The notes below the pieces were generated by a model that worked only from the letters and a program-made list of their open reading frames with translations, was not told where the DNA came from and searched no databases. DNA of 55,931 bases, filler included, from Jimgerdemannia flammicorona (Eukaryota), in NCBI GenBank assembly GCA_003990765.1. It is 3 parts of 3 records of this genome, joined end to end, with 100 filler letters (N's around TTAATTAATTAA, not from the genome) between each part and the next. Parts side by side here need not be neighbours in the genome. Positions count along the whole stretch, not along the records: positions 18,680 to 37,257 come from RBNJ01002174.1; 2 more parts are not named here. One strand, written 5' to 3'. Of this stretch, positions 9,175 through 46,990 are shown in pieces; the stretch's first letter is position 1, and every line of letters begins with the position of its first letter. The translations under genes and the position numbers were made by a program.

Positions 9175-10587
9175 GGATGATCACCATTGCAGCGAGAACA
9201 GGAATGCACATAAGGGCATCCTTTTCTATTGCACCCAGGATCCTTCATGGGTGATCCATCGAATAGAATGCCGTTGTATGCCCGACAAGTAGACCGTTGA
9301 GAGGCTTTCTCGGTAGATGGAGTGGAGGAGCCATCAGTAAGACGTAGCCCCCGTTGTACGTTGCGAGACTTGAAGGGCTTAAGTGAATTAGATGTAGAGG
9401 TTGGAGTTCGTGGACGTTGATGTAGACTAAGGATCATAAAGAGGTCGGGGTCGCGCTGGGCCCAGTACTCGCACCATACCAAAGAAACACCGTTGTTCGC
9501 GATCTCCGCCAGTCATTTTGTATGAAAGGAGACATGATAATCGAGAAGCGCGGACCAATATGATGACATTGATAGTAAAATAAAATCCGCGGTGTATGAA
9601 AAGAATGGAGTAGGATCAGTGAGGCCCGGGTACGTGTCATGAAGAACGCTGAAATACATAAGCAGGGCGGTGAGGAAAGCAGGGACGTCCGGAAGATCTT
9701 TGATAAGAGATGGTGGCTTTCGAAGAATGATCTGGGTACCCGATTCATCAAACGTTTCGATGAATTGAGCATCAGGAAGACCACTGATAGAAACGATGTT
9801 TCGCTCCAAGAAACGGCCGAGTGACACGGCGGTGAACGAATTGTCAATGACTGTGGCCAACAGCCATTGATTAACATGGGCGTATTTTAAAGAGAGATTG
9901 ATGCCTCGGACAACAGTATGGGCAGAGACAACAGAGGGAGGTATAGGGATAGACTCACCCTGGGGATTACCAGCAGGGCCGTGAATGCCAGTGGACCGAA
10001 CTGAAGGGATAGTCGGTAAGGGCTGGGATGAGGATAGAGATGCGAGAACCGCCGAAAGAGAAGCAGTAGCGTGATCAATAAAGGCTTGATCGATGATGGG
10101 AGATGCGTCCTGACCAGAAACAGCAGGAACTGTACTAGCCGGTGCCGCCGAAGATACGATGTCGGGGCGAGAGTGTAAGAGCTGAAAAAGTTCATCGAAC
10201 TGATGGTCTTGCACGGATACATGCTCTTGGAGCTAAGCAACGCTGGTTTCGATGGAAACATCAGAGGCCGGTGTGCTGAAAAAAGCTGGTCCGGCTGCCA
10301 TAGCACTAGCAGGAGCCTTGGATACGGCACGCGCCGATAGATGCGTGATTCGGCGGGGTGTGGAAGTAGAGTGATCAGGGAGGGTGGCAAGATAATCCAC
10401 GAGGATAGCAACATCGGGGTTCTCGCTATCAGATTCCAGGTCGTCTTGCAGAAAACGGAGCACACACTTGATGAAATTAACGTCCAAGCGGAAAGGGCAG
10501 GTGGTGGAGCCCAGGTCATGTTGGCCCTTCGATGTATGGGAAGGGTCGTATCGACACAAAAGGCAGGAATTTGCGGAGAGGACCATG
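9135..10587 (-). pseudogene. Ngaro ORF1 (gag-like) with Cys/His zinc-finger motifs
   Basis: ORF pieces 10233-10703, 9513-10214 and 9135-9482. C-terminal CRAYN...GCNRKGCPYVHSCSRCNGDHPWYRC is typical of fungal DIRS/Ngaro gag. It overlaps the RT start. Confidence 0.8.
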
Positions 10588-11399: not shown

Positions 11400-14300
11400 A
11401 CTACTACATGACAATACATAGTAGTCTGAATCTTGAAATTTACCTGTATTGAGTAAGCATATTATAATACTAATAAATATTTCTGATTTATATTTAATTA
11501 ACAATTAGTCTTATCACTATTACTCTCTAAGAATTACAGCTTAACAATATTTTAGTATGGTCTAATTATACAAATATTAAGTCTTATATATATTTAGTTA
11601 CCTTTTATCTTTAATAATATTACTTAATAAGATTAATAACTTTATTTTTAGTATTATTAACTTTACTTTATCAAATAATTGCTATTGAAATATTACTGAT
11701 AATAATTTTTTTTTATCTCTATTTATTAGTTTTATAGTAAGAACTATCATATTATAGCTTAGTTTAACTTATACAATATTATTATAGATCAGAGTAAATA
11801 AATATCTGTTTAATTTATTAATAAAATACAAAAGATTCTAAGAAAATAAAAGATGGCAGAGAATAAAATAACTACTTTGAGCTATGAATAATTAGAGTTT
11901 GAGATGATAAATTTATCTTTCTATATATAAATTTAAGATTAAAAAATATAAACAAATAGAATTTTATAAAATAATTATTAAGAATAATCTTTAAATAATA
12001 TAAATAATTTATTAATTTTCATATTTAGAATAATGTTTAAATAATTAATTATATAACTAATAATATAATATTAATATATTACAATTCAGAATAAATCAAA
12101 TAATATAAAATAATAAATTAAGTTAGAGAATAGATATATAGATAAAAGAGTATAAATTAAGATTATAATATACCAGCTCAATGAAGACAAATTTCAAGAT
12201 TGGAACTACTATATAGTTTGGCTTCAGCCTCTAGTTACTTTGTTAAAAAGTAATAAAATATTTTATAATTTCTGATATCCTTAGTATTTAGCAATATAAT
12301 AGATAAATCTAGATATCTAAGTGAGTTTTTCTAATTATATAGTAGATAATTTGTATAATTTTCTAATTAGAATAGCTCTTTGGTATATTGATAATTTATA
12401 TAGTATAAGTGAGTTCTTTATATAATTTCTGTTATAAGTAGATTTCTTTATATGTATATATATATAATTTCTGCATAATGATCTTAATTTAGTATTATAT
12501 GAATAATTTGGCAGACTTTCTTATTAAGTAGCAGATTATTTACAAATGGCAGATGATGTGAATTCCTTCTGAATCAGTAGACTTCTCAAATAGTGATAAA
12601 GTTCTTTACTTAAACTTAGTGACTTTATATCAGAAAGTAGACTAGAGTGAGAATAAGACAAAATATATAACTTCTTAGCTATGGCTCATTAGTAGACATA
12701 TCTTCTAAGTAGTATAATTTTTTTTCTTTTTAGGATTAAGTAGCTCTTGGTAGGTATTTCTCCTAAATATAATAAATAATTGGCTTTTGCTTTTGAATTT
12801 TTGGACTAAGGTTTATTCAATCTTATCTCTGAGGTATTTTATATAGTTGTGGTTACTATCTGATTACTATGTGGCTAATTATAAACTATATAGTAATACT
12901 GTTTTGGAAATAGAGTAACTAGATATATCTACTAGATATAGATATATCTAGTAGATATAGGTGTATCTGATAGATATAGGTATATCTGATAAACAAAACT
13001 ATATTCTTAGAATACAGATTAATAAACCTAATTTAGTATTTTTAACTAATTATAAATAGTGATATATGTAGGTAACTATAAGAGAATTACTTCGTTAGAG
13101 AACTGTTACATAGTTCTGGAAGAGTTTTCTGGAAGTTTTGGATATTCTGGAAGATTATTTTCTTAAGAGTGATTTGTAGTTTATTAAATAGATTTATTCA
13201 CTATTTATGATATTGCTATACTAGAAGTAATGTATGAAGGGATATTTGTATAAGAAAGTATTCTTGACTTATTTATCTCTATTTATATCTATTTGTATCT
13301 AAGTTTCTGAGGTTTGGAGGAGTGGATATTCATACTAATAAGAGATTATCTGAACTATACTAAATATAAGTATAGTATTTAGTACTTTGGTAAGTCAGAA
13401 TACAGTCACATAGTATAAGTGTGAACTGAAATATCAAGAGATTGTCTGACTGATGAGTCAGTATATAGTTATATAATATAAGACCAATATAACTATACTA
13501 ATAACTGCTAAGCTATCTATAGATTTAGATACTATCTGGGTATTCTTCAATAAGGTCACTATTAATGATATTATCTCTGATAAAGTAATTATCTAAGAAG
13601 AGTGATTCTTGGATTACATCTCTCTGTTCATTTATATAGTAATATATAAGAACCATATCACCATCCTATAGGATGGTATCATCTGTCTCATATACTGGGT
13701 AGGGTGTCAGTAGATAGGGAAGGGATGCATCATCTTTGCTTTCATTGGATTTACTATTAGTATATCTTTGATAGTTTATCATACTATATATTATAGAGTT
13801 ATAGTATACTGATGGCTGTAGTTTATTTCATTTACACTTGGGAGGTGGAGTTGTTGGTTTGATCTCAGGAATTGTTGATTTGATTTCAAGAGTTGTCTGG
13901 AGATATATATTATGTTCTCTAGTCTCTTTATTATAGTTGAAGTAATCAGGCATAAATGCTAATTAGTATATATACCAGTAGTCATTATCCCAATAGGTCT
14001 CATAGATAGTTATAAACTGTTATAAATTTATCAGTAGAGTTAACAGAGTGATCAGAGTTGATAGAGATTCTTGGCTAGAGATTATGTCAGTATTAGTCTT
14101 CTGCTTTATCATTATCAAACTAGATTACATCATAGATATCCTTTATGGTATATAAAAATAGGAATATTTGCAGAATTTGATCATCAGAATATGAGAAGGG
14201 TCTGTCTGTAGTTTGAGTATACTTAATATACTTGTAGTTGAGTTCTTGTATCATATTATTAATTTGGTCATAGGATAGAGTAGCAACTATTTCAGTATCT

Positions 14301-25083: not shown

Positions 25084-26169
25084 AGTAATTTTCCTGTTTT
25101 TGTTATTTCTTGCTACAAATATATTATCCATATTTGTTTATCAATATTTCGCCGGCATATTTACAGACTAACGGTTAAAGTCTAATCATTACATTCGTGT
25201 ATTTACCATGGCCAAGGTCGGTTATATTTATATGCAATTCGACACACCGGAAGGACACAGCGGTTCGCGCGACAAGATTTGCAAATTTTCTGTTTGCCAG
25301 TAAAGGGGCTGTAAACTTTACGTGAGCGGCGATAACTTTGACGGTACCGACTGTGCCTCGCATATCACACTTTACATCCCCGACGGCACTCGTCGACCTG
25401 GAAGTCTGTCTTCGCTGATACTACCAAAACCTCCCGCTCCATCCTTAATTTCTTACGCATTAGTGCGTCCTTGCGTACGAGAATGCTGATCTTGTGGTAT
25501 GTGCAACCTTTTTTTTTTTTTTCTTAATCCAACACGTAACACAGTAGCGTTAAACAACACTGAAACCTTCAGGTCCAAGTTTGGTAACAGGACTAAATAA
25601 AAAATAAAATAAAATAAAAAATGGAAAAATAAGTAACTCTACTAGGCATTTGTTTCAATATCTTGTTTTGGTACTGAATTCCTGAAATTGTGCGCCTTCG
25701 TGACACTGGAAAGTAACAATTCAGTCGGAGCCGCGATCCACTTCAGATACGCTATTGTTGACGGAAAACAGTGGCATAACCCGTCGAAAGACATGCCGCG
25801 GTGATTTTGAACTTTTTTTTTTTTTTTTCAAAACCTTCTTAGGGTTAAATGGTTTGTATTGAATAAATCAGCCTACTATATATATATTGGCCAAAGCACT
25901 CAAGAGCGATTCACAAGATATGGAGACCGTCTTGTGACATTACTCACTATAAGGACGACAGGCCCTAAGACGACAAGTGACACGTGGGAATTGAGTTTCG
26001 ATTCGGCGCCGCCGATCAGCCGCTAAGCCGCTAGCCACTTTCCGCCAAAGACTGCAGTTATTGGGTCTCGAGTTTTAGTACTTGGTTCCCACCGCTCCGG
26101 AAAAGATTTTAGCGTCACAGACCACGATCCCTCTCCTTCTTCCCATCAATTGAAAATAAGTTCCAATCG

Positions 26170-29100
26170 ATGCGTGCCGTTGCCCTCGTTACGGCCCTGA
26201 GCCTGGCAAGCGCACCCTTCGCCAGCGCGCAGACAACTCCTCGCCCCATCGACAACGTCGGCAATAACCCCACCGATGTCTACGCCGGTACTCCGAATCA
26301 GCAGCTCTTGCGCCTGGACGTCTCGAGCACCTACTTCGCCAACGCTTCGGGTGCCCTCTTCCCCGGCTCGCTCCCGCCCGCCACCGTTGCTACCAACACC
26401 ACTACCTACCCCGCCTTCCAATGCCTCGTCGCCCCGCCGGTGCCTCCCACGCAGCCGTACCCGCGTTGCGTGAGCGATCTTGTAAACGGGTATACAAACT
26501 CGCCTCTGGGGCTGCAGGTAGCGGACGCTGGGGTGCGGTCGGTGCGAAAAGTATCACATTTGGAGAGCTTCTGGGCTCAATGGTTATCGTATGACCTATT
26601 GGATATCGGAGTGAATCCCGCCGAGCAGGTCAACATCGGGCTCCCCACAGACGATGTGGCGATCAACACGGGGTCGAGTGGTGTGTCAGCCGCAGTGATA
26701 ATCAATTCGAATAATAGTCTCGAATTCTACAGAGCATTGTACATTGTCGATCCAGCCACTCAGCAGCCGAATCACACGGGAATCAACTCCGCGACGGGAT
26801 TCTTGGACGCTTCGCCTATTTATGGTTCGTCGCCCCGTGTCTATCAATGTGACGTTGCTTTATCCTATACATGTTTTTTTTTTTTTAAAACCTCAAAAGC
26901 AATTCTCATTCACGTTTTCGTTTCCAATTGGTTACTCCTTGCTTCCCTACACAGGCTCCACCGACGCCGTCCTCCGGACCCTTCGCGATGACCAAGAAAC
27001 CCACGGCAAGATGAAGCTCTTAGCTCAGAACCTCACATCTGGCGGTGAGCTAGGTCCTCTTCCGCCACTCGGTCCGGACGGCCGCTTCCTCTTGGGTAAC
27101 AACCCGGCGCGCTCTGCTAACATCTACTCGGACGCGCTGACCATTATCTTGCTGCGCGAGCACAACCGGCAGTGCGACCGTCTATACCAGCTTTATACGA
27201 CCACCTGGAATGACACCCAGTACTTCCAAGAGGCGCGCAAGTGGGTCATTGCGTTCGTTCAAAAGATTACAACCACAGAGTACCTTGGAGTTCTCCTTGG
27301 GCGCCCGTTGCCGCCGTACACGGGGTATCGGCAGGACGTCAAGCCTGGTATTGAGGCCTTTTTCGCCATGGCATCGTTCCGTTACGGACACTCAGTGTTG
27401 TCGGACGAGTACCGCATGGTCGACACGGATGCGCAGCTTATAGAGTCATTCAGCCTGAAGGGCATGTTGAACTCGGCATCCCTGATTCGCAACAAGTACG
27501 ACATCGCCACCATCCTGCGGTCGGTTAGTCTGCAAGTCCAGGAAGAGGTGGACGTATATTACGCCGACATGATGCGTAACTACGCCAGCGTGCTCAATAC
27601 CACCTTCGATACCGCCAGCTCTGACCATCTCCGCTCGCGCGATCAAGGTCTCCCACTCTACAACGACGCCCGCCAGGCCTTCGGACTCCCGCGCAAGAAT
27701 TCGTTTGCCGACATTACCAAAGACACCAAGGTTCAGAAGCGCCTGGCGCAAACGTACCAGAGCGTAGACCAGGTGGAATCGCTGGTGGGCGGTCTGGCAG
27801 AGGACCACGTGGCCGGGGCGAACGTCGGCGAGCTCTTCAACGCCAGCCTGTGGAAGCAATTCATGCGGCTTCGTGATTCCGACCGGTTCTGGTACGAGAA
27901 CCCCGGCATGTTCACCGCGGCGGAGCTGGATGTTATTCAGCACACCTCCCTACGCGACATCATTATCCGCAACCTCGCCGACCCTGCTACGGGGAATCTC
28001 CAAACTGTTCCGGCCACTCAAACCTACACTGCTAGTCTGAACGACACGTCCCAGCCGAACCCGCTCTCCTCTCTCCTCCCGGATAACCTCTGGTTCGTGC
28101 AACCAATTGGCTCACAATCTCGTAAAACTGTCGGTAACGCGCCCTCCAACTCCTTGGTGGACCCGAATGCCTATCCGAACTATTACCAATTCACCTCGCA
28201 GTATATGATCCAATGGAACACCGACCTGTCCGCAAAGCGCGTCAACATTGCCCTCACCCTCCAATCTTCTCAAGGGTGGTTCGGCATCGGGCTTAACCCA
28301 TCTGGCGCCCTCTCAATGGCAGGCGCAGATTTCATCATCGCTTCCGCGTCGCCGACAAACGGGGTGAAGCTGAATCTGTATCGATCGCAAGGGAACGCGC
28401 AGGCGCCGGTGAACGACACGGGCGCGTACGTACTGAGCAATGTGAACGCAACAATTGTGGAAGGGGTGGCTGTTCTCGTGACATTCACGCGGGCGATGGA
28501 TACGGGTGTGGCAGGAAAGGCGGTGTTTAGCAATTCAGAAATGAACCTGATCTGGGCGTACAACCCGCAGGAGTCGAATCCAACGTATCATGGCGGAAAC
28601 CGTGGGGGAATACAGATCAATTTCTTGTCGGGGATGATTGCAGAGGTAAACGCCGGGTCGAAACGGACAACGCAGTTGGTGCATGGCGTGTTCATGTTCG
28701 GTGTGTGGGCGCTGTTGTTTCCGGTATCGATTTACATTATGAGGTCGGTAGGATGATAAAAAAAATCATTTCTTGTCCCATATGTATTGAACGTATGCTT
28801 TTTCGCAGATTATTTTCTATCTAACACACATCATTCATACCCCAACCCGGCTTCAAAACAGGTTTGCTAAACACTGGGAGATGTATCTTACAATCCACCG
28901 CGTTCTCCAGCTCATCGGCGGTGTTTCCGTTGGTGCTGTCGGCGCCGCCGCCATCACGGCCATCGACCCGTCTGTCCGCACCGTACACTCGACCGTTGGT
29001 TTGATCCTATATTGCCTCATTTTTGTGCAAATCGGCATGGGCCTGATTTCGAACTACAGCATGGAGTGGGTCGAATCCGTAAACACCGGCATTATCCTCG

Positions 29101-31340
29101 TCATCAAGAAGACGCACAAATATTTTGGTGCCACATTGCTAATCGGCTCCCTCGCCAACATCTATCTCGGCATTATCACCTTCGACCCCACTACAATTAT
29201 GGCGGACGTTTACTTGGGTTGGCTGGGCATACTCGTGGCCGTCTTCGTGATCAAGCAAGTCTCGTTCTCGTGGCAAGCTATGCGGAACCGGAAGAAGGGA
29301 CTGGAAGCCAAGGCGGGCGAAGACAGGCTAGGCATGAGAGAATTCATTAATGATGAAGTGATAGAGAAGCTCACGCTCATCACCTGGAAAGATTTCAACG
29401 AACGCGTAGCAAGCGGCGCCGTTCTAGTCATGGTGGATGACTTTGTCTTCGACATTATGGGCTGGGTGGGCTCCCACCCTGGAGGATCGATGATTCTGAA
29501 GCGTGCCAATGGGACAGACATCTCCAACGACCTTTTGGGACTTCGCCGCGATACCGACGGCATGTCGACGAAGAAACAGCCACTGCGTCGCCAGGGCTCG
29601 GGACTCGGTCCACAAGACAGGATCTCCTCGAGACTCGAAAAGTACCTGGCGCCTACGGACAAGGAAAGATTGAAGCGAGCCAGCACCCAAGTTTCCGGTG
29701 TAACTTCCAAAAGAGGCGGCGAGGACTTCTTCACCCGCATGCTCCCCGGGGGCTCGGTTGCCTCTACGATGGATTATATCAATTCTAATTTCTTCCAGCC
29801 AGGCGAGATGGCACGTCACGCGCATTCCAACTACGCCAAACGCAAACTCGCCTCTATGGTCACCGCCCGTATTGACAACTCGGACGACGGCAACGCGATG
29901 GGCCTCCCAAGCCCCGACATGGTAGGCCGTCACAACGGACCGGGATCGACCCCAGGGTCACCCACGGGCACGGTTGTGTCTCCGAGTCCGGCGCCAGGCG
30001 CGGTATTCCCAAAGCCGATCATGCCGTTCTTGCTTCGGGCCCCTGCCACACGACATCAGTTCCGCCGATACGTCCTTATTGACAAGGTAAACATTGCGCT
30101 TGGCAAGCAACCGGTGGTGGCGTTCACGTTCTCGCCGGTACATACGATCAGGAACGATTTGGATTTACCTCTACTACCGGGACAGTATGTGGAGTTAATG
30201 TCACAGGTTCGGCAGGAGGTGGTTAAGCGGCCGTACAACGTTGTGCACGGCTCGGTGAGGACGGAGTTCACCATCTACGTCAAAATCTATACGAATGGTA
30301 AGATGTCCAGTCACCTCAATCTGGAGCGCCAGGTTAAGACGGAGATCAGCGTTCGCGGGCCCTTCGATATGACAAACCGCGTCGAAGCCGCGGATATCAT
30401 CTGGCGACGACCCAAGGGCGTTGATCCTAACCTTGCTCCTCGACAAGACTCGATCATGTTGAATCCGAAACGTGCCGATGGACGGTGGCAACATGTGTAC
30501 GCTATCGTCGGAGGCACTGGAATCACGCCAATTCTCCAACTGATTCAATACTACCAGTACGTTCTGGAGGAAGAGCACAAAAGGCACGTCAAATTAGCGT
30601 ATTCTGCACCCGACTCCCCACAGGACCCGCCGATCGTTACGTGGATCAACATCCTTTTCGCCAATCACACCGTCCTGGACGTTTTCGAAAGCGGACAGCT
30701 CGAATCCCTTGCGACAAACACGGGGAACCCGCACCTGCGGATTACGATTAGCTATGTGTTCTCTGAGCCGCCAGACAACTGGCAAGGTCTGAGTGGTCTT
30801 TTGGATCGGGAAAAGATGGAGGATTGGGTACGAAGTTGCCAAGAGCAATCGACGACCGAACATCAGAACAGCGCGCCGGAGCCGCCCGTACACGGAAGGT
30901 TGTCCGATGAGCAATTGAAAACCCGTGGCGCCATCCACAAAAGCCACACAATCCGCGAAATCACGCAAAGGCCTTCCCTAGCTGTATGGTCGCCGCCTGG
31001 CACGGGTCAGCATCATTTGCACCCACGGCAGCAGCGGCAACAATCGGGGGCGCAGGGGCTCGAGGTGCCAACAATATCTGTAACTTTTGCGGACGAGGAG
31101 GTAGGGTCCAATAACAGCGGGCATCCGGACAATGTTGAAGATATCTCGATGCTACCACTGTCGAGGTCGCCAACGGCAGTTGGAATCGACGAGATTACCG
31201 GAATCCTCGAGGACGAGATTCGGCAGAATGTAGTGTTCATCTGCGGCCCGGACAAGATGATGGAGAGCGTGAAAACCATCCTGACGCAGATAGAGATAGA
31301 GGAGATTAAGGAGAACAGCTGGGTTCTCACACTGTTCTGA
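26170..31340 (+). CDS. Multidomain heme peroxidase - DOMON - cytochrome b561 - cytochrome b5 - FAD/NAD(P)H oxidoreductase, join(26170..26824,26955..28743,28862..31340), 1640 aa
   Basis: Two GT-AG introns join three ORFs in frame (4923 nt). Signal peptide. Peroxidase motifs WAQWLSYD, NSATGFLDASPIYGS, LLREHNR, FRYGHS, RSRDQGLP, QFMRLRDSDRFWYEN. DOMON GWFGIG..SMAGAD..YHGGNRG. b561 with four His. b5 HPGG and HS. RPYN, GKMS, GGTGITP, CGP and terminal Phe. Confidence 0.92.
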
Positions 31341-32166
31341 AAGTGCTGCGTCAAACCAATACTCCTCTCTTGCACCTTCCAATCCGTTTGTAAAAAAAAT
31401 CTTAATAGCCGTCTGTCAGTTTCCATTATCTATACTACTATAGTTATGAACCAGCGCAATAAACATTTAATAAGTATCATCTGCGACAAGCAGATCTCCT
31501 TGTCCGACCTTCCTATGGAGCAAAAGTCTGAGTAAGCGATCTGGGCCAACCAGAAACATCCTATTCGGACACTCCGACGCAGGAGTAATTGGCGATGAGA
31601 GCAGAGTCCACCAAAGCAATATCGCCTGCCTTGCCTCAGTCTCAAATGGCATCGCCCTCCCCACCCCCCCCCCCCCCCCCCCCCCCCTCCCTCATTCCCC
31701 AAGATTCAGGGGCGGGGGGCAGAGCGACCAAAACGAGATTGTTGAACACGTTCCACAATTTCCGACGTGCTTACATATACCCATTTGCTACGATTTACTA
31801 TTTCGCTTGACACGTACAACATTGATTCTTTTGACGTTTTTTTATTTATTTATTTCTTTCAAGGATAGCAGGGTTTACCTTCCACTTGGTGCATTCGCAA
31901 CTAGATACATTATCAGTGTGCGAGACGTCACGTTTCTTTCATGCAGCTCGTTGTTTACCACACTGACTAGTTTACATGCTGAAGGATCAGTGATAATATA
32001 TATATATATACAATGCAGTGAGTTTAAATTACAAAAGAATTATACAGAAGCCAATGGTTTCGACGTTCAAACAAAAACCTACACAAAAAAAACCCCCCCA
32101 AACAAACTCTACACGTAACCCTCCTTTACTCTATATCGCTGCAACCCGTTCTCCCGTCCTTCCACT

Positions 32167-35020: not shown

Positions 35021-36260
35021 CTAACTGTTTTCACTCGATCTCATTTGCCTGAGTTCGTTATACGAATAAAATTGACTGCTCGAGCGCGAAACTCCGTCGG
35101 AGTTCTCGGCACGATTGTCATGGGCTTCTCTTCGCCTGGCGATGAATTCCCGCGTTTCTCTTGATATGGGCATCGAGCGCATAGCTTTGAACGCCCGTGT
35201 CGCTCGACTGCTTACTTGAAACGGTATTGGTCGGTTGATGGGATTTCTGTTCCAACAATCATGAATCAGATCGGCCAATGGTTTAGGCATACCAGGCACC
35301 GGCTCTTCCCGTAGGCCATCTTTGTCGGCGTACCCGTTTGGTGGAACGCCTGTCACAATCTGCCACATTAGCGTACCGAGGCAATAGACTTCGGAATACT
35401 CATTGTAAGGTTTGCTTTCGTAAACCTCCGGTGGCAGATACTCACGACGGCCGTAGACACCCCTTTGTGATTTTTGGCCTCTGATTTTGCTGAGGTTGGT
35501 GTCGATGAAAACGGGATCCCCGTCATTCATGAACACGACATTGCCAGGGTGTAGATCTTGATGGATTACACCATGCTTGTGAATCTGGTATAGCCGTCTG
35601 GCTAGTATCTGGCATGCCTGTGCCATAGCGCCCCAGGTGCCGTCCGTGCCGAATCTCTTGTCGTCAAGACTCTGTTCTCCGCACCGTGTCACCATGATGT
35701 ACTTGCCGCTCTGACTGTTGTAAGAAATTCCAAAAATGTATGCTGTTGGCACAAGCTCCCTGGCCTTTTGAGAGGAAAGGTGAACGTTCAATGGCACCTA
35801 GTATCAAATCCATTGAAAATAAATCAATCATAAAAGGCAGTTGAATAACGGAAACGTAAGATTCAAATGGCTCGGTCGTATTCACAATAACCTATTGAAA
35901 ACAAAATTGTCAACCTACCTCTTTGCACAAGATTTTCTCGTCAACCTCTTTAAGGGCGAAGCTCAGTCCCTCCTTTCCCCATCGAAGGCCACTCCTCTTA
36001 GGCGAAAGGTCGGCGCGATAAACCTTTGCGAATGCGCCCTCACCTATTAAGCGGATGTTGTTGAAGTCCTCGTAGGGAATCCAGACGAGGCACGGTTTAG
36101 CCTTTTTGAAAAGCTTGAGATGCTTCATATGTAGGTGAAGGTTTTTCTCTTGGTCTGCAAACATGGCCTTGCAATTGATCCAGTCATCGAACGGCCTTCG
36201 ATGACTACTGGTGACAATCAGGCGATTCACTTCTCGATCTTCGTTATTGGCGTCAGCCAT
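35021..36260 (-). CDS. Protein kinase (TKL-like), join(36260..35919,35797..35021), ~372 aa
   Basis: WIPYEDF, IGEGAFAKVY, FALKE, alphaC Glu at the splice, VIHQDLHPGN, YLPPE, LMWQIVTGVPP, CWNRNPINRP. GT-AG intron 35918-35798. Start codon uncertain. Confidence 0.88.
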
Positions 36261-38138: not shown

Positions 38139-38769
38139 GGTCTTGGTTCTCTTTTTTTTTTGGTCTGCTGGCACATTTGCGAGGACTGGCCATTCTTGTC
38201 TAGGGCGAGGGCTCCCAATGTCGCGGCTGGGGGTTCGAACCTCTCGGAAATGATATTTTCTGTAATCCGAGGCAATTTCTAGTAGTAATATCTGTCACAT
38301 GGATGGCTTGAGATTGGTTTCGACATTGTCAGCTTTCTTGAGTTCAGATGAAGTGTCCGTCACTCTCCAATGGAGGTGATACAGATAAAGCAAACAGAGT
38401 TGTTCAAATGCATTTTGCTTCTGCTAAGTAATGAGGTCTTGTATAGTTGCGGTATATCTTGGTCTTGAGTTGATAAGTGCAGTTCATGAACCTTTTGATG
38501 GGTGAGATAGGGTTCTTCTTGTCTTGATTTGAGTTTGGTACTTTCGGTTTCTTTTGTAATAGTACAGTACACCAAACTAGCTATAGCAGTTCAGAGTCAG
38601 TCTTATGGTTGTAGTACTTCTTTTAGTATTCTTGTATCTTGGCAGTAGGTTCTCGTGCTTGCTGGCATATTTGTGTAACCAGATGATCTCTTGTTTTGTA
38701 GTCTCGCATATAGTTTCCAAATTAGTTCTGAGGATACCATGTGATTTTGGTGGCTTGGAGGTTGTGCGC

Positions 38770-41765
38770 TTACAGTGAGTCTGATTTGGTGGAATACTGA
38801 GTATAGATCCAAGGTGCTGTAGTACTGTGCTTCATCTTCCAGAGTTATAAAGATGTCATTGATGAGGGGCAGTGATTGGCAATCCTTCTTGATAACCACA
38901 TCGAGCTTTCTGTAGTCAACACAGAGTCTTGGGGCAAATTCTCCAGGCTTGCTTCTCTTTTTTAGCACTAGTACAACTGGTGAAGACCAGGGGCTGGTGG
39001 CTTCTTTGATGATACCAGCTTCTTCCATCTGCTTGATTTCTTCTCTGAGCCATTCTCAATAGACTGGCAGGACAGGCCTTGCCTTCTGGTAAATTGGTTC
39101 AGTGTCTCCAGTATCTACCTCATGATAGTAGTGTGGGATCTTTCCTTTGATATTCTTGAAATCTGTGGTAAGGATATCCTCGAATTCACAGAGTATTTTC
39201 TTGAGTTCCTCCTTGAGTGGGAATTCATTTCTGATGGTATAGCTGTACTTGTTTGTGGTTTCCTCCTTTCTATACTCTAGTTCAGTGATCTTAGTGCTGG
39301 TAAATACTCCTCTTCCAGTGGATCCAAATCCTTTCCTTCCTCTTTTTGTTTTCTCCAGCTTTTTAACTTCTATGATTTTTGGTTGTAAAATCAGAAAGAT
39401 CAGCATCTGTGCCAATCAGTTCTTCTTCTTAATTGGGAATGGGATTGTAGGATTGTGATTCCTGACAATGAGTAGGATTTCTCCAGTATAGTCTGAGTTG
39501 ATGACTCCTCCTTTGATGGTAATTTCACTTTTAGCCAGGCTACTTCTTGTCTTGAGGATTCTGATATGGTCTTTTGGTATAGTTATTTCCAAACCAGTTG
39601 TGAGTAAGGTAGTTGTCTGGGGCTCCAGTACAGTTTCTTTTACTGTAGTAATGTCCATTCTAGCTGCATTTTCTGACTTATATTCTGATAGAACTGCATC
39701 CAGGTAGATCTTCCAAATTTTGACCTTGATTTCTTCTTCATCATCACTATCCTCCAAGAGGACTAGTGGTTCATTATCTTCCTTCTCCATTTTTTCCTCT
39801 TTAGCCTATTTCTTGAGGGCCTTCTGTCTTCTTTGGTAGTCAATCTCTTTGATTTTACCAGTATACTGATAGCATTCATTGATATACTCCATACAGTACA
39901 TCTTGATCCTGTGGGGGCAGACTCCTTATGGTGCATATCCTTCTGTGATCTTCTTGTACCATTCTTCTTCACTCATCCATCCAACTTTCTTCTTCTTTTT
40001 CTGAGTGATTACCATGTAAGCTTCCTCTTATTCACTCTCTTATTTCTCTATATTAGGCAGGACTTCTTTGTTGATATTGATGAAAATTCATATTTTCTGT
40101 CCTTAGTAGATGATCTGTATCTTCTATACATTGAGGTTGATTATTGCTCTGGCTTTGTGAAGTCATTGATTGCTGATGAGGATGTCATAGTTGGTTGTAT
40201 TGGTTACAATTATATTCACTGAGATGGTTGCTTCTTCAACTTCCCAACCTAGGTGGTCTGCTGTCTTTTGCTGAGGAGGCATCCTTCTACTCCAGTATCA
40301 ATAATGGCCTTAAAGACTCTATCTTTGATTTGACAGGTTGCATAGGCAGAGGTCTTGTGATTATCTTCACTTTCTTCTCCTGAGTCCTCTTGAACATTAT
40401 TGGCCTCAGTTATCTTCCATTCTTATTCCTTAGTTGTTTTGATAAGTCCAAACCTCATTTGCTGTCTGAATGTTGGGATTTCTATAAGCTGACCAAAGGT
40501 TGCATTGACCTTTTGTTGGCTGAGGTCTTTAAAAATATCATACTTGAAGATCTTGGTCTTGCAAAGCTTCTTTTCTTTTTCTCCCTCACTAGCTAGAGTG
40601 GTTTCTCAGATGATATCTTGAACTGCTTGTTCCAGTTCCATATCTTGGTCTATTTCTTTAACTTGGCTCTCTGTAGCAGTTTCTATTTGTTTTTCCACTG
40701 AGTTCTTCTTAGGTCTTCCTGGCAGTCTCTTGTAGGGTTCTTTGTAGACATCTTTCTTAGTGGTCTGGGCAGGATATGCCTTCCATTCCTCTTCATCAGA
40801 CTCTCCAATTTCTTTGAAGGTAATTGTATTGGCCTGCTCCTTATTTTGTTTGGCATTACTTAATTGAGCTTTGTGCTTAGTTTCACTCATGCACTTGTAG
40901 GAGTAGTGGCCTTCTTCTCCACAGGTATAGCAGGTACCTTTCTTCTTATCTGGAGTAGCAGCAAACTTCTGAACTGAGCAGCAGTCTCTTCCTCTGATTT
41001 CCTTCACTACATCTTCTAAGTGGGAAGTCATTTCAGTGAACTGTTTGACAAGCTCCTCCATAGGGTCACAGTTTCTCTACTGTTTTGTAGCTCTTGGCTG
41101 AGGTGTGTTTTGATTGATCATTATGGTAGAGATCATGCTGGTTGCCTTGGGTGCTTTGATTCTAACTCCAGTGACTCTTTCTATTATATGGTCTTATGGG
41201 TGTCTGGCTATCCAATATTGCTGAGTATAGGTGATCTTCTGTAGCAGATCCAGAACTACTGGTGATGAGTAAATGGCTATAGCTATCTCTGGGTGGACTC
41301 CTTTCATGAAGGTTGCTTTGACTACTTAATCTTAGATACATAGCATCAGCATAATCTATAAGAATTATCTGATATTAGATTCTGGTATAGAATGTGTTTG
41401 GATTCTTACTCATTCCTTGGCATATTATGTTATGCTGGTCCTTCAGAGCTTACTTGATCTCATCTGTATAATAGGTGTTTCAGAGCCAGGTCTTCTGTAC
41501 TGTCAGTATGGCATCAGAATTATTTTCTGCATAGGTTGTGGCTGTGAATGCTGCTCTGGCAGGACCTCATAGGCTGAAGAGCATGAGGGCTATTTGCTGT
41601 ACTGCTGTCAGGGTCCTTACAGTAGCATATTGCTCGAAATTATCAATGAAGGTGATGATTGATTCATCTGAGGTATATCTGTAGAATACTGGTGGTCTTA
41701 TATCTATTTTATCTAGATATCTTGACTCAGTTTGTATGGTTGTTCAAGTGGTGGCAGTTGTTCAT
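38770..41765 (-). mobile_element. Second dUTPase-bearing Ty3/Gypsy relic: gag (zinc knuckle), protease, dUTPase, RT 5' part; rest of pol deleted
   Basis: Gag IRPPVFY..FIDNFEQYA and CYTCGEEGHYSYKC. IIDTG protease with an internal deletion. dUTPase LEPQTTTLL..RSSLAKSEITIKGGVINSDYTGEI..RGRKGFGSTG. RT SPWSSPVVLV..PGEFAPRLCVDYRKL. Truncated after TLDLYSVFHQI. Confidence 0.92.
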
Positions 41766-41799: not shown

Positions 41800-44700
41800 T
41801 ACCAGCTAATGGGCACTAAGTTATAATATAGTGGATACTTAACCTTTGAAGTATGTTGGATTTCTGTATTTTGAAACTTGACTTGTTCTGACTCTCACAG
41901 AGTCCTCAGGATTACAGGGGTGGGTGAGTTCAAAGTATATCTGCCTACAGGCTTACTAGTTCCTTTACTTTCTCTTTTGCTTTGAACTATTTCGATCTGA
42001 GGTTTATTCACTCTAAGATGCTGAGTTATTTGCTAGCTTATGAGATGGCTAAGTTATGAGTCATTTTGCAAGTATTGAATCTTTTAATATCTACTAGGAT
42101 TGCACTGATTGTAGACATTCTAATATCTTCTAAATCTTTGCAAATTTTAAAGTTTCTACACTTCACAGAATATAACTGCTATTTATAAGACTAAGCTATT
42201 TTGGAAATTAGATTCAGATACCATGATCAAATGTCTAATTTCCCTGTTTCATATTACTAATTTGGATCAACTATCACAATATATATTACTACTTTATTAT
42301 ATAGCTACTATTAGAAATAATAGATATTATCAGTATAGATATTTTTATAAAAAACAATATTGACAATATTGTTAAAGATATATCTGAAGTATTTGTAGTA
42401 TATATCTATTTATATGTACTATAGTAGCTAATATAACTAAGAGAGCTATAATATAACTTACTAATACTAGATATATGATGTGAGTTATAGTAACTAATAG
42501 TGATATAAAAATATTGAACCTGATTTGAGATATATAAGGTCTTCTATCTGAAAAATCTCTAATATAAAACTAATGAGATCCAGAATACCTAATTAAATAT
42601 CTTAAGAAAAAAGTAGTTTTTAATTATTACTATCAACTCTATAGTACTATCTTGGTTATTGATATTAACTTTGTGAAATTATATATATTCTTAAGAAAAG
42701 TATTTTATAAATAGTTCTAGTAAGTTATTAGCTTTAACTTTAGTAATTAAGACTTTCATATTTATAATTAATATAGTGACTATACTAATAGATATCAACA
42801 ATAATCTTAAGATATTTTTCTGTTATAAATATAAGCTCTGTTCTTCAAGATCAATATTAGTTTTAGTAACTTGAAATCTGAAGATATTCTAAAAGTTATA
42901 GAATAGATCAAAAATGATAAGCTACTATTGATAATCTATGTAATCTTATAATCAAAAGATAGGAACATCAAAACTGTGAATTTTGATATTGAGATATTTT
43001 ACTATCTGTGAACTATTATATATAAGAATAAAATCTAAAACTACTATAGCTAATAGCTTTGAAGAATCAAAAGTAGTCAATATTACTAATTTATCTATCT
43101 CTGGTAAACTCAGTAATATGTATACTAAGTAAAATTAATATTGAGGAGATAGACTCAGAGAGCTTTGAAAATAACAAAGACAATTTACTAGTATCTGATA
43201 TAATTAACTTATCTAGTCTAGATATTAATAGAGATATTAAGATTGAGGGTATATCCTTTCTCTACTATCTTACTAATTATAAGGTTTAGTAGAAAATCTT
43301 CTGAGTCTACTTTCTATAACTTATATCCTCTCTATCTTAGGTTAGTTTGCTATATCTATTGCAGGGAAGGCAATAGTGATGAGTTACCTCTTTATTAGTA
43401 TCAGATTAGTATTTTCTCTACTTTTTTATAATTTCTGATATCTTCAGCTATATCTGGAATATACTTGTTTTGGTATAGTACTTTCTTCCTTTTTCTATCA
43501 CCAATAAGATGTCATCTGATATATCATGAGCTGTATATAGAGTTGGCCAACCTTAGGTATCAAGTACTAGTGTAGATTATCTATAGATCTCTAATATCTA
43601 TGGTGGGGTCTGAGCTTTGGCAAGCTTCCTGACAATTACAGTTCTAGTCTAAATAACTGCTTTTGAATAGAGTCAGATTGGGAGAGAAGATGGCTATTAT
43701 AGATTGGAGAAAGGACAATAATAGTGAACTAGTAGAGTACTAGACTAGGAGTGGTTACATATTGGAATTAGTGTGGGCATTATCTCAGTGAGGCCTTTTG
43801 ATTGACTGACAGGAGGTAGGGTGGTATAGAAGACAGTATCCTGACTGTATCCAACTAGAACTGAGAGCTGATATAGTAATACAATCAAGACCCACAAGCT
43901 TGGGAAGTGAGATCTCCCTTATTTGGTAGTACCCAACTAGAACTAAGAGCTAATATAATAATGTAATTGAGGTCTACAGGCTTGGGAAGTAGGAGTGGGA
44001 CTTTTCTAAACCTTGGTCTATGTATTAGTTCTTTTGAGGGAGTTCTGCATATAAGTTCTTTACTTATCTACTCTGAATCTATTCTATTTTCTTTAACTGG
44101 TGGGGAGTTTTTATTTGCCTTAGATCTTTATTTGAGATTTGGAGGACTATTCCATATTCAGTCCTAGCATTACTAGATCCAATATATAGGTATGCTCTCA
44201 TATATGGTCATAATGATCTAGCCCTAGTAAATAAATAAGTCTAGTCTATATATTGGGAGTTGATATATCTGATATACATATATAGTAGAAATAGTGAGAC
44301 TATAGGACAATTTAGTAGTCTAGATTAATGGAAGAGTAATGTCTGGTGGGTGGTAGGGGAGGGTTTTGGCCTATATAGTCTAGGTTCTCTTTTAATAAAA
44401 TCTATGAGATATTGAGTCTGTTAAAAAAAAAAAAAAAAAAAAAAAAGGTCTCTGGTCTATCTGATCCAGCATACTTGTTAAATTGCTTATTGATCACTAT
44501 ATTACTATTACTCTTTCTTTAAAAACTGTGTTAAAAGTATTGTCAGAAGTTTGTATAATATAAATGATATCAGAGAAAGATATTGTAGTATATGATTTAT
44601 ATATATATATTTTGATTACTACTATATATAACTTAATATACCACTGGATATCTGTATGCTATTATCTCTTTATCTACTAATAATATTCTGGCTCAATGTT

Positions 44701-45390
44701 CACTTTAACTACTGTTTGATTTGTTATATTAAAGTTTATATATTTCAAGTTATTGATCATATAACTGAATATTTAGAATGGCAAAAAAGAATTCATTATA
44801 TTATACATTATTCTTGAGTTTTTAGATAAGTTGACAGTTATTCTCTATATTTCTTAGCTGAGTTTCCTGGGTCTTATATCTAATTTCTGAAGTTTGTAGT
44901 AGGTTTCCAGAGATCTTATACATATCTAATTTTCATAGTGATGATCTTAACTAACTTATATCAATTGACTCATTCATATATTGTTCTTGAGTTTCTTATA
45001 AGTTGGTGATTATTCTGATATTCTAGGCTAAGTTTCATAGTGATTTTAACTAACTGACTTATAATTTGAGTTTTGTGATGATTTTCTATAGTCTTGTATC
45101 TAATTTCATAGTAATAGCAAGAGTATTACTTCAGCTCTTGGAGTCTTTTCTATTATCTTTCAAAACTAATTGACTGAGGTTTGTTCACAACAGATCAGGA
45201 GATATTTATACAACTTTCAAGCTATATATAAGGCTAGGTAATTAGTTGTAACTCATAATTACCTGAAGATACTATTTAGCATACTTTTGGAATTTAAATA
45301 ACTAACTAACTAGATAAGACTAATTTTATGTTTATAATAAATTTAGCTAGTTAATATATAGTTACTATTTGTACAACTAACTAACTTACT
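41800..45390. other. AT-rich, CpG-free degraded repeat relics
   Basis: No credible ORFs. Contains short degenerate duplications (43851-43908 vs 43934-43990; ~44812 vs ~44985). Confidence 0.6.
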
Positions 45391-45409
45391 CTATTTAACT
45401 AATAGAGCT

Positions 45410-46990
45410 GTTCTCATATATCTTAAAATTCAATATGACTGAGATTATATTATCCTCATTTTCTTTGGAGAGTCTGGCCAAATCATTTTCTGCATCTCTC
45501 ACAATTGTACTGAGATCAGTAGTGGGCTCTGAGAGTGAGAAAAGGAAGTTATTGATGTTATCTTTCAATAAAATAAGTGGGTTATCATTATTCTCCAAGT
45601 TGTCTAAGGGGGTGATACATATATCAAAGGATGAAAGGTCATTCTGCTCTTGAGGTCTTCAATTAATGATGAGATTATCTACAAAGTAGAGAACATCTGT
45701 AGAATTCTGGAGATAGTAGACTCTCAGAAGAGAGCCTTGAAATAGTACAATTAGACTATGAATACATTGGTCTGAATTGTTCTTTAGGATAGGGTTCCAA
45801 AGGTCTTAAACCTCATCATTCTTGACTGTGATAGTAGATTGAACTTCTTTTGCAACCATTTCCTCAAGATGGTCTGCATGATGGCTTATCACTTCTTAAA
45901 TATCAGACTTTGATATATTCTAGATTGGAAATGGCTCAGAGTGTATGTCTGAAGATCTGATAGACTCTTTTGATCAATTGTTATTTATGCTCATTTATAT
46001 ATATAGTATCTGCAATTTCTTGAGAGCTGGCTTGAGTGAATTCTTAGTGAAGATGATATTCCATCTTATATTATTGCCACATCCAAAGATACTCAGCAGC
46101 AGTAGTAATTCTTGTCTCCATTTCTTGACAGTTGAGAGTATAGTAGTAGAGGTCTCTTATATAGAGGTTCAGACTAGAGGTCCTTCTTATATGCAATTTC
46201 ATGACTCTCTTATAGTACTCTGAATGAGTCAATTTAATCTGAATTGGATTCAGATTGAATTCAGATTGAATCCCATTTGGATTGATTTGAATCAACCATT
46301 GTTTTGATTTCCAAATTAGACAATTAAATATTAATATCAATAACTTAATAAATAATTATCCAATTTTGATAATCTTGGTATTATATGAAAGCCCTTAATA
46401 AGGCCTTTCAAATGATACTAATAATATTGAAATTGGATTATACATTGCCAAACTATTAACAAAAATGGTCTTTTGAAGAAATTTTCAAAATTGGCAGGTC
46501 AAATAATTTCCAAAATTAGTGAGTCAGATGTTTTTCTTTATAACTCAGCAATATATGATCTGATTTCAATATACTTAGTATCATTAGAAAGGCCTTATTA
46601 ATGGCTTTCAATTGACATTAAGATCATCAAAATTAGATAATTATTTATCAAATTATTGATGTAAATATTTAATTATCTAATTTGGAAATCAAAATAATAG
46701 TTAATTCAAATTAATCTAGATGAAATTCAAATTCCATCTGAGTTGATCCAGATAGGATTCTAATCTGATCCAGATCAGCTTGTTCAGAGCACTACTCTCT
46801 TGATATTAATGAATATCTGTTCTTAAACTAATAGACCTAGGTGACTCCTTGATCTTATTGTTTGGAGGATAATAGGTATTTTATTTTATAGTAAGTCTCT
46901 TATTTGTGGTTGATGTTTTGTACTTCTTCTCTTGATACTTCTTTTAAATCTTAAGAGTCTTCTCCTTTAGTCCAGAGAGTAGTATCACCT
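45410..46990 (-). pseudogene. Diverged homolog of the Gypsy accessory ORF (4417-10949), interrupted by a MITE
   Basis: MKLHIRRTSSLNL..METRITTAAEYLWMW, YQIFRH..ISNLEY, VQSTITV..DLWNPILKNNSDQ..LFQG align with MRTHSRRTPSINL..METRITIATKYLQMW, HQIFRH..IPNLEY, AQSTITL..DFWHPILQDNPDQ..VFQG. Confidence 0.8.
46213..46794. mobile_element. 582-bp foldback MITE, hAT-type (8-bp TSD)
   Basis: Long imperfect TIRs (~240 bp arms), termini TAGT(A/G)CTCTGAA...TTCAGAGCACTA, flanked by ctctctta (46205-46212) and ctctcttg (46795-46802). Confidence 0.88.

Follow-up and report, generated by a model that had tools for sequence, protein, structure and literature searches.

Among the closest described systems are the CYBDOM proteins, in which a cytochrome b561 core is joined to an extracellular DOMON domain. 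In the Arabidopsis CYBDOM protein HYP1, as described in the accessible part of PMC10784544, a signal peptide precedes an apoplastic DOMON domain with a heme at M90/H174, and five helices hold an apical pair of histidines (H211-H278) and a cytoplasmic pair (H245-H314). Electrons move between the inner and the outer heme of b561, and the third heme, in the DOMON domain, passes them to acceptors outside; the trans-membrane currents that were measured depend on ascorbate, with cytosolic ascorbate as the source of the electrons (PMC10784544). Here we describe a gene from the fungus Jimgerdemannia flammicorona (Endogonales) that appears to combine a core of this kind with its own reductase and with a peroxidase-like head domain. 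The gene lies at 26170..31340 on the plus strand of the stretch of DNA that we analyzed, which we call the window (55,931 nucleotides; three parts of assembly GCA_003990765.1, joined end to end). We put the probability at roughly 60% that the protein is a type-I, five-helix flavocytochrome of the plasma membrane, which would act as a self-sufficient trans-membrane electron chain with a peroxidase-fold end.

Gene model and transcripts

Three open frames on the plus strand, between 26113 and 31340, join as one coding sequence of 4923 nucleotides (nt) that encodes 1640 amino acids (Table 1). The start and stop codons are those in the initial annotation of this DNA. Removing intron 1 yields PIYGSTDAV, which agrees with the motif D-x-S-x-I/V-Y-G in homologs. 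With intron 2 removed, FP and the second b561 histidine are as far apart as in the chytrid protein P0005. If intron 2 is retained, there is an in-frame TGA at 28754..28756.

Four public runs match the window, and we aligned their contigs to 26000..31600. Runs X1 and X2 are annotated merely as "RNA?", and X4 is a root metatranscriptome; the contigs are uninformative about transcript ends. Contig 8 of X2 (5044 nt) covers 26192-26823, 26954-28741, and 28860-31456, with both introns removed at GT..AG boundaries and with 3' untranslated sequence up to 31456. Contig 1 of X1 (2743 nt) has both introns spliced out as well. Contig 21 of X4 has 9 + 16 mismatches and comes from a relative; intron 2 is spliced out of it. 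Because introns of the genomic stretch are missing from the X1 and X2 contigs, these contigs are cDNA-like (complementary DNA).

These data show that 26170..31340 is one gene with three exons. The single spliced reading frame of 1640 amino acids in the initial annotation is thus borne out by the X2 contig that crosses all three exons, and RNA across the two introns, which had been proposed as a check, has both of them removed in the contigs of X1 and X2. The annotation had also raised the prospect of transcripts that end at the stop codon at 28756, which would imply two genes, but intron 2 is spliced in three runs, which favors one gene. In that alternative, a secreted peroxidase-DOMON gene and an adjacent b561-b5-reductase gene would have been fused in our reading. 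The stop codon in the retained intron is consistent with this, several Jimgerdemannia models in the databases (P0001, P0002) are split or truncated at the same place, and a contig over two genes does not by itself prove a single transcript. However, the contigs from the three runs remove intron 2 in frame at GT..AG, the first b561 helix, with the histidine of LVHG, is encoded in exon 2 and the other four helices in exon 3, and the fused order is found in 70 homologs that we fetched, some of them derived from transcriptomes. Two genes are hard to reconcile with the reading frame, with the phases of the introns, and with a b561 domain that intron 2 interrupts, and we consider an artifact of this kind very improbable.

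Another candidate for intron 2 (28748..28808, 61 nt, phase 0) was excluded by the boundaries that the contigs use and by the spacing in P0005. Three other differences between the contigs and the window were seen. A low-depth X1 contig skips 79 nt with non-canonical ends (28766..28846), within intron 2. Another single low-depth X1 contig, with 15 mismatches, skips 105 nt, or 35 codons (29551..29657), in the insertion of the cytochrome b5 domain; this contig is probably from a paralog or an allele. Both X1 and X2 have an in-frame GAA insertion at 30894, inside the low-complexity insertion of the NAD-binding domain, which looks like a polymorphism between strains or alleles.

Domains, heme ligands and the peroxidase-like head

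We compared the three exon products separately to Pfam (E <= 0.01). The order of the domains is An_peroxidase, DOMON, Cytochrom_B561, Cyt-b5, FAD_binding_6, and NAD_binding_1 (Table 1). These matches are far above chance, and their order is kept among the homologs. The exon 1 match to An_peroxidase is, alone, under the 25-bit cut-off, but the same profile continues in exon 2; the exon 1 product has no match to solved structures at E <= 1. The five redox modules of the initial annotation are therefore present in the order that it gave, and all of the motifs that it quoted are in the translation (RPYN, GGTGITP, CGP, HPGG/HS, LVHG, TIHR, TVHS, KTHK, SMAGAD, and YHGG).

Reductases of this type have an R-x-Y-T/S motif for flavin adenine dinucleotide (FAD), a G-x-G-x-x-P motif for NAD, and C-G-P. 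In this protein the corresponding motifs are RPYN, GGTGITP, and a CGP near the C-terminus. Among solved structures, the reductase is closest to NADH-cytochrome b5 reductases and to a nitrate reductase, at weak E-values (6.6e-05 to 5e-03). The NAD-binding domain contains a low-complexity insertion of about 125 residues (at about 1476-1600) that is just 11-15% identical to homologs. In the b5 domain, about 90 residues that are likewise poorly conserved (9-22% identity) are inserted between His1020 and His1136. This atypical spacing of the two histidines explains why the match to Cyt-b5 is confined to positions 1-54 of the 74 in the profile.

The presumed heme ligands of the DOMON, b561, and b5 domains are all in place, as is the proximal histidine of the peroxidase-like domain. 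We counted the ligand columns in alignments to hidden Markov models (HMMs) of the family. For DOMON (115 rows), the column of Met673 has 109 Met, 3 other residues, and 3 gaps, and the column of His764 has 101 His, 7 other residues, and 7 gaps. For b561 (151 rows), the outer pair is His795 (124 His, no other residue, 27 gaps) and His857 (145 His, no other residue, 6 gaps), and the inner pair is His827 (124 His, 16 Lys, 11 gaps) and His900 (140 His, 1 Gln, 10 gaps). For b5 (148 rows), His1020 of SHPGG is found in every row, without gaps, and His1136 of HAHS in 111, with 37 gaps and no other residue. The ligands named in the initial annotation (Met and His of DOMON, the four histidines of b561, and the histidines of b5) are thus found and conserved.

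The hydropathy profile has exactly five segments of membrane length, all between residues 791 and 952, and nothing of similar strength elsewhere. Helices 1 and 3 have His795 and His857 at their outer ends, and helices 2 and 4 have His827 and His900 at their inner ends. In the translation, Lys and Arg are abundant in the presumed cytosolic loops and in the segment that follows helix 5 (QAMRNRKKGLEAK...). The 769-residue ectodomain contains 11 N-x-S/T sequons, and the 685-residue cytosolic part contains 3. From a signal-like N-terminus, which would be cleaved, and from the five helices, we predict that DOMON and the peroxidase-like domain are extracellular and that the b5 and reductase domains are cytosolic. 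This layout resembles that of HYP1 and would place the reductase and the peroxidase-like domain on opposite sides of the membrane, as the initial annotation had supposed. A crude hydropathy count of helices over the 71 sequences with the full architecture (see below) was dropped as uninformative, as it scattered from 3 to 13; we use the helix count of our protein and, for the family, full-length matches to the b561 profile.

The distal side of the peroxidase-like domain is altered. In mammalian heme peroxidases, a distal histidine and arginine take part in catalysis and an aspartate forms an ester with the heme. We used MAFFT to align the family to reference rows that include thyroid peroxidase and peroxidasin. 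Our protein reads WAQWLSYDL, versus WGQ(Y/F)(I/L)DHD(I/V) in the reference peroxidases, with Tyr141 in the column of the distal histidine, a replacement that the initial annotation does not mention, and Ser140 in the column of the heme-ester aspartate. The region of the G-D-x-R-x-x-E motif reads GNNPARSAN, which is one residue longer. The column of the distal arginine contains Ala270 (MAFFT) or Pro269 (HMMER), with Arg271 one or two positions away, so the distal arginine of the head domain is uncertain from the sequence. The heme-ester glutamate is missing in both alignments, and Ala273 is in its column in the MAFFT alignment.

On the proximal side, His364 in SFRYGHS matches the F-R-x-G-H of the thyroid peroxidase and peroxidasin rows, and Asp442 is retained in the column of the hydrogen-bond partner of the proximal histidine (Asp in 64 of 76 filled rows). 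Also retained are Asp142, just after the distal position, and T209/F211/D213/S215 (T-x-F-x-D-x-S), which together we take to be the Ca2+ site.

Across the family, we tallied these positions in 84 peroxidase-bearing rows, truncated models included. The distal column is filled in 62 rows, and in 51 of these it is not His (19 Phe, 15 Met, 5 Tyr, 4 Gln, 2 Leu, and 6 other); among the 11 rows with the distal His, 9 keep the distal Arg as well. The proximal column is filled in 72 rows and is His in 68 of them. In our protein, the distal His and the heme-ester residues are replaced (by Tyr141, Ser140, and Ala273), and there is Ala270 rather than Arg at the arginine column, with Arg271 adjoining. This makes classical peroxidase turnover doubtful, and with it that way of using H2O2, which the initial annotation had considered. 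Judging from these residues, the head domain is unlikely to be a classical peroxidase.

The head domain is not decaying. It is 36-43% identical to its homologs from Glomeromycotina and Mortierella, as compared to 28-34% for DOMON and 33-43% for b561. Since the head domain varies between subphyla no more than the other domains do, it is under constraint. Its best matches among solved structures are 8s6c (528 residues, deposited as "Lactoperoxidase", which we take to be a bacterial peroxidase; E = 3.8e-48) and peroxinectin A of Dictyostelium (6erc; 3.7e-47). Matches to mammalian lactoperoxidase, myeloperoxidase, and eosinophil peroxidase are weaker (1e-35 to 1e-29), as is the match to DUOX1 (1.8e-29).

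We also built a tree of 129 peroxidase domains with FastTree; several long branches meet in it, so its deep placements are unsafe. Our protein falls in a clade of 45 rows (support 100) with the rows from Glomeromycotina and Mortierella, inside a group of 57 rows. Eight of the rows that keep the distal histidine are in a separate group of 11 rows (Powellomyces, Cyanophora, and others) that adjoins the canonical peroxidases. This histidine-keeping group scores far higher on An_peroxidase, at 436-457 bits (457 for P0044 from Powellomyces and 436 for P0208 from Cyanophora). With a branch support of 10, a single origin for all the peroxidase domains that are joined to such redox chains is neither shown nor excluded.

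Distribution of the architecture and surroundings of the gene

The near-length matches to the exon 3 product were four models from J. flammicorona (58-80% identity), which are truncated or mis-joined, and one chytrid protein, from Thoreauomyces (1408 amino acids), which has the entire domain order in one model. A search with exon 3 for longer relatives returned none, which reflects a limit of the word index, as the exon 2 query retrieved them. Among longer targets, the exon 2 product matched 107 proteins at E <= 0.001. According to precomputed Pfam assignments, 45 of these have DOMON, b5, or reductase domains besides the peroxidase domain. These 45 are named "heme peroxidase" or "hypothetical protein", and they are from Mortierella/Podila, Jimgerdemannia, chytrids, and Glomeromycotina (Rhizophagus, Funneliformis, Gigaspora, Diversispora, Paraglomus, Acaulospora, Entrophospora, Dentiscutata, and Cetraspora, with several per species). 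The other 62 are bacterial multidomain peroxidases, animal peroxidases or peroxidasins, and one DUOX-like protein from a protist; the bacterial proteins align to about 55% of the exon 2 product, with about 40% identity. When exon 3 was compared to 1.84 billion representatives in an exhaustive HMMER search, 435 matches were found at E <= 0.001, including 23 at E <= 1e-30.

We scanned 255 sequences (254 fetched ones and our own) with five domain HMMs built from the family alignment. The full order of peroxidase, DOMON, b561, b5, and reductase was found in 71 of them, that is, in our protein and 70 others. Another 36 have DOMON-b561-b5-reductase, 29 have b561-b5-reductase, 24 have b5-reductase, 62 have the peroxidase domain only, and 33 have other, partial combinations. 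Pfam, run on ten representatives, found the full architecture in seven, and the other three were cores without the peroxidase domain. The architecture, whose range the initial annotation had proposed to check, is therefore not unique to this gene: it occurs in fungi and in protists.

We obtained source names for 20 representatives. These add Hyaloraphidium, Paraphysoderma, Blastocladiella, Sorochytrium, Spizellomyces, and Nowakowskiella to the fungi with the full architecture, and also two organisms outside the fungi: the stramenopile Tribonema gayanum (from a transcriptome) and the glaucophyte Cyanophora paradoxa (transcriptome-derived). Overall, the full architecture is found in Glomeromycotina, Mortierella, Endogonales, chytrids, Blastocladiomycota, Tribonema, and Cyanophora. 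The core without the peroxidase domain is found in chytrids (Gorgonomyces, Rhizophlyctis, Globomyces, Geranomyces, Terramyces, Phlyctochytrium, and Gaertneriomyces) and in stramenopiles (a bicosoecid and Tribonema minus). No Ascomycota or Basidiomycota are among the named matches, which describes these lists and is not a census.

Several features of individual members are worth recording. The members with DOMON-b561-b5-reductase (P0143, P0148, P0155, P0133, and others) are all named "hypothetical"; by domain content, this core amounts to a self-sufficient CYBDOM. The chytrid members P0005, P0056, and P0145 have an SH3 domain inserted in the NAD-binding domain, which hints at regulated docking of a cytosolic partner. 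The Rhizophagus clarus paralogs P0010 and P0013 have consecutive locus tags on one contig (RclHR1_07570008 and RclHR1_07570007), which suggests a tandem duplication.

We found no description of a function or an assay of this architecture in the open full-text literature. Within this scope, the statement in the initial annotation that no functional characterization was known still stands. The accessible part of PMC10629195 mentions "animal-type heme peroxidases" in Mucoromycota, with nothing further on the architecture, and the accessible parts of PMC6411640 and PMC4029949 do not mention it. The architecture is widely conserved and, as far as this literature goes, uncharacterized; it is made of known modules, and the proteins are already public under automatic names.

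The window also contains retroelement pieces. Pol fragments of a Ty3/gypsy-type retrotransposon are spread over several frames of the plus strand at 133-3482. More degraded pieces, with weak RVT_1 matches and a zf-CCHC knuckle, are found on the minus strand at 8287-9180, 38606-39055, and 40609-41076. Judging from these pieces on the joined stretch, whose parts may not adjoin in the genome, the surroundings of the gene are transposon-rich. An open reading frame at 35024-35797 on the minus strand contains a protein kinase domain (Pkinase, 8.7e-16) and is probably one exon of a neighboring gene. Between 14000 and 18000 the plus strand is purine-rich, with a GC skew of about +0.5, and has long open reading frames without any match to a Pfam family. 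The GC content is 25% at 12000-14000 and 28-30% at 42000-48000. No tandem arrays were found in the whole window at a score of 200 or above. The window contains 176 N.

Table 1. Coordinates of the gene, of its predicted domains, and of retrotransposon domains in the window.
Feature	Position	Strand	Details
Start codon (ATG)	26170	+	
Exon 1	26170..26824	+	Residues 1-218 and one base of codon 219 (the first); encodes the signal-like N-terminus and the first third of the peroxidase-like domain
Intron 1	26825..26954	+	130 nt, GTTCGT..ACAG, GT..AG, phase 1; absent from X1 contig 1 and X2 contig 8
Exon 2	26955..28743	+	Remainder of the peroxidase-like domain, DOMON, and first b561 helix (Pfam)
Intron 2	28744..28861	+	118 nt, GTCGGT..ACAG, GT..AG, phase 2; absent from contigs of X1, X2, and X4
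Exon 3	28862..31340	+	b561 helices 2-5, cytochrome b5, FAD-binding and NAD-binding domains, and stop codon (Pfam)
Stop codon	31338..31340	+	
Signal-peptide-like N-terminus	26170..26229	+	MRAVALVTALSLASAPFASA; read from the translation; 9-mer hydropathy maximum 2.43
Peroxidase-cyclooxygenase-type domain	26239..28069	+	Residues 24-590, spans intron 1; Tyr141 at 26590..26592, proximal His364 at 27389..27391; An_peroxidase: exon 1, E = 1.5e-04, 20.9 bits, profile 60-160; exon 2, E = 3.9e-79, 267.1 bits, profile 163-521
DOMON	28172..28645	+	Residues 625-782 (exon 2; Pfam); Met673 at 28316..28318, His764 at 28589..28591; E = 2.2e-12, 47.7 bits
Cytochrome b561 core	28661..29282	+	Residues 788-955, spans intron 2; five hydrophobic helices (hydropathy, Pfam); Cytochrom_B561: exon 3, E = 2.7e-06, 28.1 bits (cut-off 23), profile 35-130
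Cytochrome b5 domain	29370..29873	+	Residues 985-1152; HPGG His1020, H-A-H-S His1136; Cyt-b5 (Pfam): exon 3, E = 5.7e-07
Cytochrome-b5-reductase-type FAD-binding and NAD-binding domains	30030..31337	+	FAD-binding, residues 1205-1316 (RPYN); NAD-binding, residues 1355-1640 (GGTGITP, CGP); Pfam, exon 3: FAD_binding_6, E = 2.9e-11, 44 bits; NAD_binding_1, E = 5e-10, 40.4 bits
RVP_2 protease	133-750	+	
dUTPase remnant, RVT_1, and RNase H	954-2315	+	
Integrase	2868-3482	+	

A possible electron path and its relation to known systems

Modules of the b5-reductase type pass a hydride from NADH or NADPH, or NAD(P)H, to FAD and then reduce b5 one electron at a time. We propose that in this protein, electrons from cytosolic NAD(P)H would enter at the FAD and move to the heme of the fused b5, to the inner heme of b561 (His827/His900), to the outer heme (His795/His857), and then to the extracellular heme of DOMON (Met673/His764). 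From there they might reach a heme in the head domain that is ligated by His364. The protein would then be a CYBDOM that draws its electrons from its own NAD(P)H reductase instead of from cytosolic ascorbate and that has gained a peroxidase-like domain as its terminal station. That it is a trans-membrane electron wire of some kind seems likely from its sequence. For the terminal reaction our preferred guess is that a reduced, five-coordinate heme in the head domain would reduce O2 at the cell surface to superoxide or H2O2, with an output like that of NOX or DUOX. We favor an O2-reducing five-coordinate heme because the proximal histidine is conserved but the acid-base pair of His and Arg is not, and a fixed sixth ligand seems unlikely given a distal column that may be Phe, Met, or Tyr. 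O2 as the acceptor is nevertheless a tentative choice. Cofactor binding, topology, the direction of electron flow, and the terminal reaction are all predictions from the sequence.

Several points weigh against this scheme. Binding of heme or FAD in every domain is predicted from the residues that are present, and the FAD motif is RPYN, with Asn instead of the Thr of R-x-Y-T that most relatives have. The topology leans on hydropathy and on the analogy to HYP1. The sequence does not distinguish NADH from NADPH as the donor. The last step would require a putative contact between DOMON and the head domain. Also, DOMON is a sufficient exit on its own in HYP1, and 36 relatives have no peroxidase domain, so the head domain may not be the terminal acceptor. 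Finally, Tyr141 removes from the distal pocket the histidine that peroxidases require, and as the distal column varies among Phe, Met, Tyr, Gln, and other residues, it does not indicate any single alternative chemistry.

Three other roles for the head domain need to be weighed. If electrons instead left from a solvent-exposed DOMON heme, the protein might be a reductase of metals, quinones, or a partner protein, like the CYBDOM ferric and cupric reductases or the cytochrome of cellobiose dehydrogenase, with a head domain that is non-catalytic and perhaps regulatory or wall-binding. HYP1 reduces ferric and cupric substrates through its DOMON domain (accessible part of PMC10784544), the 36 relatives without a peroxidase domain suggest that the core works on its own, and the distal catalytic residues of the head are degenerate. 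Against it, the proximal histidine (68 of 72 filled rows) and the motif of the Ca2+ site persist, the head domain is at least as conserved as DOMON, which points to a heme-dependent role, and it occurs across fungal subphyla and in protists. We consider this reading unlikely, if worth keeping in view. A cap without any heme, like the peroxidase-homology domain of human DUOX, would leave a four-heme wire with a pseudo-enzyme as its structural end. The changes at the distal histidine, the distal-arginine column, and both ester-link residues would fit, and P0087, a DUOX-like protein from a protist that we included in the alignment, has degenerated similarly. However, P0087 has Tyr in the column of the proximal histidine, while this family keeps the histidine, in F-R-Y-G-H-S, and the position of Asp442, so a heme-free head is improbable.

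The remaining possibility is that the head does act on peroxides, as an extracellular peroxide reductase that is driven by NAD(P)H. Its heme would react with H2O2 or an organic peroxide and be re-reduced through the wire in two one-electron steps, as in cytochrome c peroxidase, so that cytosolic reducing power would detoxify peroxide at the surface, such as host-derived reactive oxygen species around a root symbiont. Near-identical fragments of the gene are present in two root metatranscriptome runs. The full canonical pocket survives in the minority of the family described above, and the position of the histidine-keeping rows next to the canonical peroxidases suggests that peroxide chemistry may be ancestral. 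Such a reaction is likelier for that clade than for our protein, which, with the rest of its 45-row clade from Mucoromycota, has lost the distal histidine and which has no Arg in the distal-arginine column; without distal His and Arg, compound I forms orders of magnitude more slowly. For this protein we think peroxide reduction rather unlikely. We therefore keep the electron chain that ends in a peroxidase-fold heme as the preferred reading.

If that chain works as we propose, few known single-chain electron conduits of eukaryotes would be as rich in cofactors, and it would offer a surface redox route that is independent of NOX in lineages that include arbuscular and Endogonales mycorrhizal fungi. 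A broader proposal, which is speculative and in our view doubtful as a whole, is that this is a third, independently assembled route by which reducing power is exported from the cytosol, in addition to NOX/DUOX and to b561 proteins that are fed by ascorbate. It would place an FAD and five hemes in a single polypeptide, in early-diverging fungi and some protists, and would carry electrons from NAD(P)H through the plasma membrane to a peroxidase-fold heme; in Mucoromycota the distal pocket would have been rebuilt from His/Arg to Tyr, Phe, or Met for a new surface chemistry. The Mucoromycota clade includes the mycorrhizal Endogonales and Glomeromycotina, with several paralogs per genome. A remodeled pocket might convert O2 to superoxide or H2O2, or it might handle nitric oxide or peroxide at the interface with plants.

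The scheme makes testable predictions: the stoichiometry of heme, trans-membrane currents driven by NAD(P)H, and the identity of the heme from which electrons exit. The small clade with the canonical His/Arg pocket and the large remodeled clade form a natural experiment on a peroxidase fold that is fed electrons instead of substrates, with a parallel in the unresolved role of the peroxidase-homology domain of DUOX. Some members are from transformable species, such as Spizellomyces punctatus, which opens a way to genetic tests.

The architecture joins three well-studied systems, namely CYBDOM, b5 with b5 reductase, and the animal-type peroxidases, and it can be compared to each of them. Fusions of b5 with NADH-cytochrome b5 reductase are known from Ncb5or and from the b5-FAD-NADH tail of nitrate reductase. 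They have the same two Pfam reductase domains and b5 in series. In our protein, by contrast, b5 follows a membrane-bound b561 and precedes the reductase, and both b5 and the NAD domain contain long and poorly conserved insertions. Cellobiose dehydrogenase also relays electrons from a flavin to a DOMON-type heme and on to an external acceptor, and some homologs of our protein have weak matches to the Pfam family CDH-cyt. But cellobiose dehydrogenase is secreted, fueled by sugar, and has one heme, whereas our protein is predicted to span the membrane, to use a reductase of the NAD(P)H type, and to hold up to five hemes. The short peroxidases (8s6c, peroxinectin A, and the multidomain peroxidases of Planctomycetes) are the best sequence matches to the head domain. 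Unlike it, they are soluble or secreted and have the canonical distal His and Arg, while the head domain has Tyr141 and is tethered to a membrane chain.

The resemblance to the CYBDOM proteins (HYP1 or CRR) extends to the signal peptide, the Met/His heme site in a DOMON domain that is N-terminal to b561, and five b561 helices with four histidines in an outer and an inner pair, all of which we read here from the sequence. The difference is that our protein adds a fused b5 and FAD/NAD reductase on the inside, and a peroxidase-like domain ahead of DOMON. PMC10784544 names the residues of the ascorbate site in HYP1; in our protein, the fused b5 and reductase suggest an electron donor other than ascorbate. 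The initial annotation had stated that CYBDOM proteins couple DOMON to b561 without a reductase of their own. This is correct for the characterized plant protein HYP1, as far as the accessible part of PMC10784544 covers it, but not for the 36 + 71 sequences reported here, from which CYBDOM-type cores with their own reductase exist as a family.

In DUOX, as in our protein, one polypeptide contains a peroxidase-homology ectodomain, a heme-containing membrane domain, and, on the cytosolic side, a module for FAD and NAD(P)H. The ectodomains of DUOX1 and of our protein are homologous, and the peroxidase catalytic residues are degenerate. The differences lie in the parts. A NOX-type ferric-reductase domain with six helices (PF01794), FAD_binding_8, NAD_binding_6, and EF-hands were not found in the three exon products at Pfam E <= 0.01, while P0087 does carry these NOX/DUOX families according to precomputed Pfam assignments. 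Our protein uses b561, b5, DOMON, and FAD_binding_6/NAD_binding_1 instead. It also keeps the proximal histidine that P0087 has lost, and its head domain is closer to 8s6c and 6erc than to DUOX1. Since its modules are unlike those of DUOX, the protein is an analog of DUOX, not a relative or a member, as the initial annotation had proposed; the membrane and dehydrogenase modules of the two differ.

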